Assembly (NCBI GenBank): GCA_051362555.1
Contig: CM120649.1
Coordinates: 14,384,001-14,448,000 of the forward strand
Direction of reading: 5' to 3'
Length of the DNA stretch: 64,000 nucleotides
DNA from: Lingula anatina
Taxonomy: Eukaryota; Animalia; Brachiopoda
Shown: positions 45,301 through 51,300 of the stretch, piece by piece
Position numbering within the stretch: position 1 is the stretch's first letter
Layout of the letters: every line of letters starts with the position of its first letter
Notes under the pieces: model-generated
The model's database searches: none
What the model was told of the DNA's origin: nothing
What the model saw: the letters and a program-made list of their open reading frames with translations, nothing else
Made by a program: the position numbers and the translations under genes

Positions 45301-48300
45301 ACATAAACTGTATATATTTGATATAAAATGTATTGCTTTACATGAGTTTTCATAAATCCTCTAATTCTTTAAGCAGTAGAACCATTTCAGTTGTTTTTCT
45401 TTGACATAGCACATATACAAAAATTCCTCCAATGTTTTTCACATCAAATAAGGTGTGATGCCAGTCTCCAAAATCATATATATTTGACTAAAATCTCTAA
45501 TATTTCAACTTAAATTGGCACTAATGGTAGGACAATAAATGAGACCGCCTTAACTAGCATTATTTTCCCATTTAACCCATTTCCTTTCAGACCCATTACA
45601 AAAGAAATTGACAAACTCCAGCAGCTTAGCTCTATCATTTCAGCATAAATGTAAATATGAAGTGGGATTTATGTCTACAAAATGGTATTATTTCATTTTT
45701 ATGTCTTGCATAAAGAGTATAATTTTGTATCTCATTTGGTTGTAATGTTTTTCTTTTCTACATTACAAATGGCCATTCCTAGCTTGTTTGGCTCTTTTCC
45801 AAAACCTGTATCAAAACAAGATAATGCTCTTTCATCTAGCTTATATATTATTCTAAAGCCTTACAATTAATATTTCATTTTCTTTGGAGAGTTCAATGAT
45901 TTTTATACATTGAATTTTTTATGCGTAAATAAAATCTGTTTTACCAAACAAATGAGATAAACATGTCATCTACAAATATTTTTAATGTTGTTTTCTTTAG
46001 ATGTCCAATGACTGTTCTCCTATTTTCTAAATATAGCTTTATTAATGCAGTGCATATTTGTAAAAATGTGTAAAGATTTTAAATGCTAGAAAATTTGTAA
46101 AGATAAAGAAAAAATATAGATATGATGGAGCTTCTATTAGGAAATTTTAAAAAATATCTTTAAACCACAATTTTTTTTTAACCTCCAAATTGATGTAATC
46201 TGTGACCTCCTTGATATTACATCAGTTTTACCAAGACAAGGAAGGGATTAAATGTTGCCACTACATACAATTATTAGTGACTTATGATCATAATGTAACA
46301 TGCTAAATAACTAGGAGATGACAAAGGAAATATTAAAATAAAGCCTCCAGACAAATAAATCAAATTTCCAAAATTAAAATAAAAAGAGGAAGATAATAAT
46401 GATGAGGATGTCTCTCTCATTCATTTTTTTTTTTTTTTATCTTACCAGGAAACCACCAGAACTAGGATTGATGTTTTGTGGTAAATAAAGCACACCATTA
46501 AAAGATGCCTGATAAAGCTACTGACGCATTTGAAGAAAAAAAGTCATCCATTTCATAACAACTTTACAACTGTTGGCTTGCCACGTCTTTCAAGATAACT
46601 CATTAATCATATTAATGTGCGAGCCCCCAAATCCTCTCCGAATCCCCAGAGAACTTTTTCACAAATCATCAGCCCAAATACAGGTCTTAAATTTTAGACC
46701 AAAATTTTCGTCTACTTTGATTTTTCATACTTACATCTTCCATTGCAGGCTCAAAAATGCTCGTAATGAAATCATCCATCTCTGCATAATCATCAATGTC
46801 CTGTTCTGTGAGGCCCTCTCTGATATGCTCTACTATCTCCTCTCTTATTTCTTCCCTAATCTCTTCCGTCAACTCTTCATCGCTGTCACAAAGGTCATCA
46901 AACAAACCTTCTGGCAACTCTGCTTCCAGCATTGCCTCCAGCAGTTCTTCCTCCTTATCACTAAGATCCGATGTGGACTTTGAGCGATTCAGACCCAAAG
47001 GATTTTCACCTTCGTCGTCGTCTTCTTCCAATGGTTCATCCCATTCTTCCACATCTTCTTGTTCTTCTTCAGCATATGCTTCCTCTTCTTGTTCTTCCTC
47101 AACATCCTCTTCTTCTGGCTGCTGTTCCTCAACATTTTCCTCCTCGTGTTCCTCATTCTTCTCATCACCACTGACTTCATCCTCTTTTGGTTCAGCCTCT
47201 CGTTTTTTCTCTATCTTTTTCAAGAAGTTACGGTCCATTAGAGCCGCCTGAAGTTCGCTCATATGAGGTGCTTTACGTATTTCAGGTGGTCGCTCTACAG
47301 GCGATGTAGATTTACGTTCTATTGGTGAAGGGCTTCGTTCTTCTGACCTATCTTCACGTGATGTGCTACGCTGTTGAACTGGTCTCGTCTTGACTGGTGC
47401 TGCCTGCTTGCGATTGTTTTCAGCCATCATTTTACGGTCCATGGTCTTTGGGAGGTTGGTTCCCTTCAGAGCATCTAGCTGTTTTGGAGGGTACACAACC
47501 ATGGCGACTTGACTAGGGTTAATCTTTTGAGGCTTCACATGGGCAATCGTAGGACCCATCTGTTTCACTGGCTGAGGCTTAGGTTTCGGTGGGTTTGCAT
47601 GCATAATGAAATAATTCTTAGGCTTTTCAGTAGACTTCTGCTTCTGTAGTTGTGGCTGTTTTTGGGGTTTTGGGGCAGTTCTTTTTGGTTGTGGTGGAGG
47701 TGGAATCCTGTCTGGTATATCAGGAAGCATGGACTTTGGAAACATTCTTGGGGGTGAACGAGTCTTTCTGGACCGCTCGCTATTTCGCACCATAAGAGGA
47801 TTATGACGAATGCGAGGACTACGCGGCTCATGATGACTATGACTATGTGGAACACGATGACTACGTGGCACACGTGGACTACGAGAGATACGCGGACTTC
47901 TTGGGATGCGTGGGCTTCTAGGAACACGCGGGCTTCTTGGTGGCTCTGAATGCTGACGTAGCAGGTGCCCCCTTGGATATGAGCTGACTACTGGGGCAGA
48001 GTGATGTGGCTCTCTCTCCCTCCTAGTCACTGAGGCTTCGGAATTCTGTGATCTAAGGGAGTCTCTAGGAGATCTGTTCATCGTTTGTTCCCTTCTATAA
48101 TCGTCTGATCTAACGGAGTCCCTAGGAGATCTGTTCATTGTTTGTTCCCTTCTATAATCATCTGATCTAACGGAGTCCCTAGGAGATCTGTTCATTGTTT
48201 GTTCCCTTCTATAATCGTCTGATCTAACCGAGTCCCTAGGAGATCTGTTCATTGTTTGTTCCCTTCTATAATCGTCTGATCTAACGGAGTCTCTAGCAGA

Positions 48301-51300
48301 CCTGTTCAATGTTTGCTCCCTTCTATAGTCATCAACTACTGGGTGTGATTCTCTTCCACTTTTACTCATTGTAGAATCTCGCCTCTGGTCATAAACTGGG
48401 TCTCTTGGTGTTCTACTTACTGGCGGCTCACGGTGATGGCTGTTACTCACAGGTGGCGGTGGAGGGTCTATGGGTCTCCTGCCTTCTATTGGATCACGAC
48501 GATGTCCATTTGACATATATGCTGGTTCCACTGAACTCCGGCTTATTGGGGGCTCCTGGCGATGACTGTTTACAACTGGGGGTGGCGGTTCCAAATATTG
48601 TCGACTTGGCGCAGGCTCCCTCCTGTGTCCATTCACTGGGGGAAGAGGGTCAATCGGGTTTCTATTAGTTGGCACCTCACGTGGATGTCCACCATTTGCC
48701 ACGGGTGGCGGCACACTGACTTGTCTGTTCATATGGGCATCGAGGCTATGCAGATTTTCTGTGGTGAAATTTGGTCTTGGTATGGTACCGTTTATATGTG
48801 GCATGGGTCTTGGAGCAGTTCCATTCATAGACTGGTGAGAAGAGGGTGGAGGGCGATCACTGCTGTGGTAAGACGGGGGTGGAGGAGGGCTGTAACTGCG
48901 TCCTCCATTTGAATACCCACTACTGTGATGGTACCCATTCATGGGTGGAGGGCTGTGGCCTCGTGGGGCGTGTCTCCCTGGGGAAGGAGGGGGACCACGC
49001 CCTTCTCTCTGCCAGTCCTCATTGTATTGCCTCTCACTGGGATAATGAGAAGGGGGTGGGGGTGGTTCATTCCTGGGCGGAGTCTGTGGCTGAGTATGAT
49101 AATCAGGCTCTGGGATATAATGATCAGCATGGCTTCTCTGAGGTTTCATCGTGTGTGCCCTACTGCTATAATCATTATAGTCTGATCTGTATGTGTCACC
49201 CCCATAACCTTCACCACCATTACGACTGGCTGGTATTACGGCATATATTTCTGAGCCAGAGTTGTAGCCATCGCCTTCATACAAGTTCCCTTTCCGGGGC
49301 AGTCTTCGTTGCTGCGTGTCTACTGAATTGTAAGGCCTACCTCTCTCTCCCATCATCATTTTTGCAATGTTAAAACGTCCAGATCAACAACAATATAAAA
49401 AGACAGTCAATCTCTTTCAGTCGTACAGAGTTGTATTGTTATACCATGCTAAATGATGGAAGACCAGAAATGTGTGCACCAACGCCTGGGACTTACGAGT
49501 CGGAATGTTGTTTCTCTCCTTGGCTATTAATCAATGTGAAAGGTACACATGAGATGGGGGGAGACTTGGACTTTTAATGCAGTTTCTGACTCAAAGGTAC
49601 CAACAGGTAGGCAATGAATTAAACAAAACAGCTTAATCACCTCTGCTTCAGTCAGTACAGTGCACTCATATATTGTGCTGGAAAAATGCCTTTAATATAT
49701 TCCAGTGCTTTTTGATGTAAAAAGTTTCAATTTTAGCTGCAGAAACAAACTCTCCTTCAATAGACGATATATTTCCTTCAGTCTTGTAGTAGAGTCTGAG
49801 CTATAAAAAGAATCCAACCACTGTTCTTCCTTAAACACTCAACCTGCAAAGATGCTTTAATAATCATTCCCCACAAGGTGCAGTGTCAGGTGAAAACATC
49901 AACCAGGATCCTGGGTATGTCAAATACAGCAATTCCTCTCCTGTTCCTTGTTTATATACCACGTAGTCCAATCAAGCCAGGGTGATTCAAAACCTACAGA
50001 TGAGTCAAGTTAATCATCCAGAGCTATGGTGTCATCAGAGTCCAACTCCCCTTTGACTGCCACGCAGCATTTAAGGCAATTTCAAAATAAAAATAGCCTT
50101 AAAATACCTGCTTCTTTTTAAAGAAACTCCACTGCAGTTTTTCCTTTCAGCAGAAGGAAAAAAAAGGAATCCTCTAAACTGAGTGTCAGTCTACCACAGA
50201 ACTGGCTCCCACCTAGTCTCTAGCATGCACAGAATACATCTGATCTCCCGCCTCGTGCCTCACAGGACCCCCATTATACCATTCATAAGGAAACAACATC
50301 AAAAAACAATAGGCACCATTCAATCTTATCCCGATGTCAGGCGCCACCTATACCACAGCATGCCATGACTCGGGATATTTTGCAACTCATCATTATTCAT
50401 GCTGCTTCAAGGGCCCTGTATAATTGCAGTGGAGGGTGAGACATGGATGAGAGGGGGCCTTGTCCTGCAAAGCTGGATGCAAATGGGACGGTGTAATGAG
50501 TTTTCTTGAGACAAGGCCTCTTTGCAAGGTGATGACACTTTTGTGTGACCAAGGGCATATTTTTCTGATCTAAAGAGGGCAATGAAAGAAGTGGTTTATA
50601 TGCTGGTTTACAATATGGCTGGACTTTGAAACACAAAGATACTTTCATATTTTGGTTTATCTGTGATATAACATATACCCTATAACTATAGTGATATGGA
50701 AATGCAGGGTGGGTGGAATGTGTTTCAGAAATATCACTCTATAAAAGAAGACCTCCAATTGTCTATGACTAGGCTTTTATTGACAATCAAAGTACAATTT
50801 GCCAGCCCAAATACATGCAAAGATATAAATCGCACTGTAGTGCTCTGTATGGGTGGTGCATTAAAGGTGAAAATTTTGACATGTGAATGGAATATGTAAG
50901 AAGACTTTGCTGCCAAACAACTGTAAATTTATCTTGATATTAATTACATATTTCAAATTTAAAAACTCACTATTTTCACAGTGGCAGATCATCCAATTAA
51001 TAGTATTAGAAAGTTTCCAAGCATTTATGAAATCTTTTCTCTCTTTTTAAATACTTAGTAATGGAGTGAGCAAATTCTGAAAAAAAAAAAAAAGTTTGAA
51101 TACTCTCCCCTGAATTTCTTCCTATTTTTGGATAATTTCCTTAACCTTCTTTCACCAATAACAAGGACAGGATCTGCCATAATTTACAACTATATGAATT
51201 ACAGTAAACAGTTTTTCCTACATTATATATCCTTTTCTTTCCTCTCAAAGACTGCTCTACAGTTCATCTAATGATAATAATGAACATTTACGGAGAGATC

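Follow-up and report, generated by a model that had tools for sequence, protein, structure and literature searches.

A giant intronic coding exon in the myosin VIIa gene of Lingula anatina and the motor-less FERM2 isoform predicted from it

The stretch of Lingula anatina DNA analyzed here (assembly GCA_051362555.1, contig CM120649.1, positions 14,384,001 to 14,448,000 of the forward strand; 64,000 nucleotides, hereafter the window) carries the 3' part of a myosin VIIa gene on its minus strand, and one intron of that gene contains a giant open reading frame (ORF) on the same strand. Our analysis revealed that the ORF is transcribed and codes for protein, and that purifying selection acts on it, though with a looser constraint than on the myosin exons. 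This giant exon probably provides the myosin VIIa gene with an alternative first coding exon, spliced from 46735 to 44772, which would give a motor-less FERM2 isoform of 1,281 amino acids (875 + 406).

The host gene is represented in the window by a 924-aa open tail encoded by 21 exons from 63906 to 36320 and comprising FERM1, SH3, MyTH4-2, and FERM2, and the motor domain and IQ neck would fall beyond the window end. Class VII likeness was seen along the length of the tail, with 76–83% identity to the best myosin VII matches, and the best solved-structure match of the exon at 44306-44455 was human myosin VIIa (chain 5mv9_A, E 2e-13). A FastTree phylogeny of 37 rows left the tail unplaced among non-arthropod sequences, with a top identity of 85–86%. 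The intron that splits MyTH4-2 (53111-44773, minus strand, 8,339 nt) has GT..AG ends. For the AT-AC intron preceding it, no other ends close the reading frame; most related loci show similar branch-site and AC signals before the same canonical exon, whereas loci L003, L004, and L016 are without the intron.

Inside the 8,339-nt intron, the ORF extends from an ATG at 49359 to a stop at 46687 on the minus strand (890 aa; stop-to-stop frame 49383-46687). Position -3 of this ATG is an A, and a TGA in the same frame lies immediately upstream, in agreement with an earlier, preliminary description of this DNA. Base shuffling of the ORF stretch (300 shuffles) produced a longest open frame of at most 323 aa, with a mean of 127. 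The residue composition bore out the Pro/Arg-rich and acidic make-up that the same description had assigned to the product: a Pro/Ser/Arg/His-rich N-terminal part is followed by Arg/Ser repeats, a basic Pro/Lys part, and a strongly acidic stretch at the end (residues 721-875, net charge -65). No further copy of the ORF was found elsewhere in the 64-kb window.

Transcription of the ORF was evident in public RNA-seq data. Four of nine runs with the same species label were mapped on 42200-51000, and the share of each run read was about 6% (X1), 6% (X3), 6% (X4), and 25% (X7). Reads fell on the ORF in three of the four runs; the remaining one, X4, had none there and just two on the whole stretch. 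Mean depth was 1.80 (X7), 0.56 (X1), 0.35 (X3), and 0 (X4) in the 10 bins spanning the ORF; 0.23 (X7) and 0 (X1, X3, X4) in the six intron bins below it; and 0.22 (X7), 0.21 (X1), and 0 (X3, X4) in the five bins above it. Both stranded runs (X1, X3) showed one and the same orientation for reads on the ORF and reads on the canonical exons, and the 5' part of the ORF (bins 48962-49549) was covered in X1 and X7. Because canonical exon depth in X7 was near 40, ORF transcripts amounted to approximately 5% of the canonical level in that run. A few reads also lay upstream of the ORF, in X7 at 49844-50137 and as one X1 pair at 50138-50431, with an acceptor-like word at 49800 and a donor-like word at 50110 nearby; a non-coding first exon around 49844-50431 is possible.

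Variants in the RNA reads revealed coding constraint. Among the variants listed (40 of 62), 21 were located in the ORF and 19 in canonical exons. Silent changes made up 15 of the 21 ORF variants, versus 22–27% expected from the ORF codons (P 2e-6 to 3e-5), 16 of the 21 occupied third codon positions, and pN/pS (nonsynonymous relative to synonymous polymorphism) was about 0.11–0.15; in the canonical exons, which served as the control, all 19 were silent. This silent-variant excess therefore identifies the ORF as a protein-coding exon under purifying selection. The ORF variants listed ranged over codons 15 to 842, and silent variants at 49308 and 49315, falling in codons 15-18, were consistent with a coding 5' end. 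Since the open frame, the RNA coverage, and the silent variants all reach the first codons, the data favor a first coding exon. The X7 reads on 42200-51000 differed from the window by up to 10%, with 55 of 208 reads just 90–95% alike and many near-fixed silent differences, which suggests either that the species is highly polymorphic or that its label also covers a divergent population.

The 3' end of the giant exon would connect it with the myosin gene. Its donor, GAT followed by GTAAGTAT, comes after codon 875 (46735) in phase 0, the phase that the exon at 44772 requires, so that the GTAAGT donor and fitting phase of the preliminary description were recovered in the sequence. The intron has four GTAAGT words, so that such a word is weak evidence by itself; what counts is its coincidence with register and phase. 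Compared over its last 24 nt and the 8 intron nt that follow, the exon end shares 25 of 32 nt with the canonical exon end, and the next best match to the latter in the 64 kb, on both strands, reached 20 of 32. A profile built from 31 distinct myosin VII exon ends placed the last 12 codons first among 879 ORF windows, and their score was reached by no other of 8,679 stop-free six-frame intron windows; when the acidic end was shuffled, the best window equaled it in 3.75% of 2,000 trials (P = 0.04).

Structural prediction placed helices in the last residues of the exon at nearly the positions seen in the canonical protein. A single-sequence model of the last 182 residues had helices at -44..-27 and -18..-7 from the junction, and the canonical MyTH4-2/FERM2 model (homologue P0056) had helices at -43..-27 and -15..-2. 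In the canonical model, the junction falls after helices H41-47, H52-68, and H80-93, and the remainder consists of four MyTH4 helices and FERM2. The predicted isoform would thus be without an intact MyTH4-FERM module, with the predicted helix pair as a substitute. A separate observation concerns ORF residues 801-845 (46825-46959, minus strand). When 45-residue windows were scored without gaps against the N-terminal profile of MyTH4-2, the one with its end at residue 845, which is 30 residues short of the donor, outscored the one ending at 875; its P value of 0.009 is post hoc and uncorrected, and HMMER gave no match. These residues may stem from an older or a second duplication of MyTH4 sequence, or their score may be a Glu-rich composition effect.

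At the other end of the exon, the preliminary description had proposed an internal promoter on account of the TATA-like word TATATAAA, which is indeed present at 49958. The window contains 264 matches to TATAWAWR, many within AT repeats, so the word is uninformative and was rejected as promoter evidence. A mutually exclusive swap of the giant exon with the canonical exon was likewise considered and ruled out by the AT-AC upstream intron: between 53111 and 46735 there is no full U12 branch site (CCTTAAC), just two partial CCTGAC words, and the one with an AC after it (49890) runs into a stop, so the giant exon cannot simply take the place of the canonical one.

Several results weigh against a spliced, motor-less isoform. 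The joint from 46735 to 44772, proposed in the preliminary description as the RNA-seq junction to seek, was absent among the joints listed (threshold, three reads from two starts) at a local depth of approximately 2–4; the canonical joint had 23 reads in X7. The joints listed leave out two joints and two loose ends at repeats as well as one more loose end. The canonical upstream exon lies outside the mapped stretch, so joints from 53112 could appear only as loose ends, and two canonical joints within the stretch were likewise present as loose ends only. The absence of the 46735-44772 joint is weak evidence against the isoform, yet the key splice is one that we infer. Although RNA covered the ORF and thinned out upstream of it, no transcription start emerged among the results for the mapped runs, and five ATGs lie between the TATA-like word and the ORF start, leaving that word without evidential value. 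The ORF variants all came from run X7, with 3–8 reads each. At the exon end, the 45-residue window ending at codon 875 was not significant against the MyTH4-2 profile (P = 0.35), HMMER with a gapped hidden Markov model found no MyTH4 match there, and MyTH4 sequence likeness is clear only for the last ~12 residues. The likeness to the canonical exon end, in exact register over 25 of 32 nt, does not extend convincingly further, and the proposal that the exon end grew from a duplicate of that end is likely. The helix model is of low confidence (predicted local distance difference test about 52–63 in this part, predicted template modeling score 0.23).

To the same side belong the comparative searches, as no real homologue of the ORF was found in word-based protein, HMMER, metagenome, or Atlas searches. 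The word-based searches with the ORF covered proteins of 489–1558 aa; metagenome contigs yielded no match, the Atlas no usable match, Pfam no match, and the solved structures no match of note. With HMMER, the last 302 aa had a sole match among 1.84 billion representatives, a bacterial cadherin-repeat protein that was rejected as a repeat-summed artefact. Relatives were drawn from 64 metagenome loci found via the next exon, of which 24 had both flanking exons and the intron between them (some being duplicates). In all 24, none of them a close relative, the intron was short (approximately 59–1,626 nt) with its position kept, its longest same-strand open frame was 111 aa, and no duplicate exon end was present in it. 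Among 120 of 158 myosin VII matches listed (proteins of up to 2000 aa), none had a long foreign N-terminus before the shared exon. With no homologue and short introns in the relatives, the giant exon appears lineage-restricted at the resolution of the relatives available.

The ORF could instead be a gene in its own right, with a single exon and nested in the intron on the same strand, its 890-aa disordered protein ending at 46687 and the donor and MyTH4-like end being relics or chance. The missing joint and the frame's own ATG and stop agree with such a gene, and transcription and silent-site excess fit it equally well. However, the path from the stop to the first AATAAA at 46043 had zero depth in all four runs (46022-46609, at low overall depth), although poly(A) libraries should cover a 3' untranslated region, and the best exon-end match of the intron sits precisely on a phase-0 GTAAGT. 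The preliminary description had named transcripts that read through to 46687 and are polyadenylated as the sign of a nested gene; read-through toward a downstream poly(A) site has little RNA support, and we consider a nested gene unlikely. A cassette exon of the full-length motor, in which the 53112 donor would join an acceptor inside the ORF and put approximately 700 disordered residues into MyTH4-2, could use the in-frame, pyrimidine-rich AG at 48831, and its upstream joint would be visible only as a loose end. Against it, the open frame continues 176 codons upstream of 48831 to the ATG, with RNA on 48962-49549 (X1, X7) and silent variants in codons 15 and 18; no loose end inside the ORF was found among those listed, and the helix end would be duplicated rather than replaced. 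A cassette exon is therefore quite improbable.

Low complexity, the lack of homologues, low RNA depth, and the empty run X4 would all suit a non-functional ORF derived from repeats or pre-mRNA noise, but the silent-site excess, the roughly eightfold coverage over the adjoining intron in X7, and the absence of a Pfam match or a second copy in the window leave this idea largely refuted and very hard to credit. A different doubt concerns the protein itself: the motor-less transcript may be made while the hybrid MyTH4 stays unfolded, FERM2 being a mere localization tag for a disordered protein of unrelated role (e.g., structural or condensate). The ~12 residues that alone are clearly MyTH4-like and the low-confidence helix model are in line with an unfolded hybrid, as is the sole Atlas look-alike, a low-complexity Treacle-like cluster scoring 0.76, below chance level; the predicted helix register, which matches the canonical one, and the in-frame retention of the exon-end residues point the other way. 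Within the preferred explanation, an unfolded hybrid takes up a minor but appreciable share.

If the myosin VIIa gene does use the giant exon as an alternative first coding exon, transcription would start inside the intron, possibly with an upstream non-coding exon, and the isoform would consist of 875 mostly disordered residues followed by the four C-terminal MyTH4-2 helices and a complete FERM2. The last ~44 exon residues would likely substitute for the lost N-terminal MyTH4 helices, and the exon end would likely derive from partial duplication of the canonical exon end together with its donor. A harmonin C-terminal motif is described as binding the FERM cavity of Myo7 MF2 (PMC5493754). The C-terminal FERM is further described as docking on the motor and autoinhibiting it, an inhibition relieved by M7BP, which was found with that FERM as bait (PMC7835385), and this FERM-motor autoinhibition is termed conserved (PMC10579538). 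Given these two roles of FERM2, adaptor binding and docking on the motor, the most likely role of the isoform would be that of a non-motile scaffold that holds FERM2 partners in place via its Pro/Arg-rich region and competes for them with the full-length motor, as proposed for headless Myo10. More tentatively, we envisage a lineage-restricted disordered protein that became joined to myosin VIIa through a partial exon-end duplicate, its own helix-loop-helix replacing MyTH4 helices, so that one gene might provide both a motor and a motor-free FERM2 scaffold capturing adaptors or docking on the head in trans; this scenario as a whole is possible rather than probable.

Table 1. Features of the giant exon and the surrounding myosin VIIa exons (window coordinates)
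Feature	Position	Strand	Remarks
Giant coding exon, 875 codons (probable first coding exon)	46735..49359	-	ORF, composition, RNA coverage, silent variants
In-frame tandem repeat, 57-bp (19-aa) unit, 4.9 copies	48049..48327	-	Arg/Ser/Asp-rich with SPR motifs
Last 44 codons, with a predicted helix-loop-helix whose register fits the N-terminal MyTH4-2 helices that it would replace	46735..46866	-	Low-confidence single-sequence model
Candidate splice donor GTAAGTAT, phase 0	46727..46734	-	Identical to first 8 nt of canonical donor at 53111
15 codons and stop, read only without donor use	46687..46734	-	
TATA-like word TATATAAA	49951..49958	-	No support as promoter
AT-AC (U12-type) intron directly upstream of canonical exon	53204..55507	-	ATATCCTTT donor, TCCTTAAC branch site, AC acceptor
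Canonical MyTH4-2 exon, 92 nt; 3' end resembled by giant exon	53112..53203	-	Run X7 has 23 loose-end reads for its splice to 44772
Shared acceptor exon, 62 nt	44711..44772	-	Starts in phase 0
Eleven further exons, remainder of MyTH4-2 and whole FERM2	36320..44456	-	406 aa together with acceptor exon

Other features of the window include the remains of a broken long terminal repeat (LTR) retrotransposon at 15793-18684 (minus strand), with gag, partial reverse transcriptase, and chromodomain matches, and a 363-nt repeat of 98.9% identity at 12748-13110 and 18875-19237, which may be an LTR pair. A segmental duplicate on the plus strand (6294-7770 and 25235-26696, 88% identical) carries an exon for a small Cys-rich single-pass membrane protein, whose first copy (6294-7770) had no Pfam match, and a serpin gene with two long frames is located at 29073-31174 (plus strand). 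A short dispersed repeat (53421-53585, 39644-39752, and 25032-25185) occurs within two introns of the myosin gene and also outside them.

Known isoforms of MYO7A are described as differing at the extreme N-terminus with the motor retained (PMC13079962, PMC10579538, PMC10982375). The mammalian isoforms C, S, and N arise from alternative transcription starts, and C and S differ by 11 N-terminal residues (PMC13079962, PMC10579538). ATPase activity is ascribed to isoforms C and N, which indicates that the motor is kept, whereas the isoform predicted here is motor-less. The available text of PMC13249394 names no headless myosin VII, and, in agreement with the preliminary description, which knew of no motor-less myosin VIIa product, we found none described in the literature searched, where subscription papers were mostly missing and supplementary isoform tables could bear on novelty. 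The protein collections searched contained no annotated motor-less form, and similar isoforms of other animals may therefore have escaped notice. If true, a natural motor-less FERM2 isoform would mean that a myosin with a central part in stereocilia, microvilli, and Usher syndrome has its regulator built into its own gene, and that a giant intronic exon supplies the new sequence by which a folded domain is completed.

Two other MyTH4-FERM myosins offer precedents for parts of this arrangement. In mammals, Hdl-Myo10 is described as a motor-less isoform that starts inside its gene, at exon 20, and retains the PH domains together with a complete MyTH4-FERM; negative regulation of the full-length motor is its proposed role (PMC6345916). 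The form predicted here would likewise be a motor-less product from inside a MyTH4-FERM myosin gene. Unlike Hdl-Myo10, it would start inside the last MyTH4, losing FERM1, SH3, and part of MyTH4-2 and gaining 875 new residues. The giant N-terminal exon of MYO15A-1 is Pro-rich, and our protein homologue searches showed no sequence likeness between it and the ORF. That exon is described as encoding a 133-kDa N-terminus, from a single exon, ahead of the motor (PMC10982375). In both cases, one giant exon gives, or would give, an isoform-specific N-terminus to a MyTH4-FERM myosin; the MYO15A-1 exon precedes an intact motor, whereas the exon described here comes after FERM1 and SH3 and falls within the last MyTH4.

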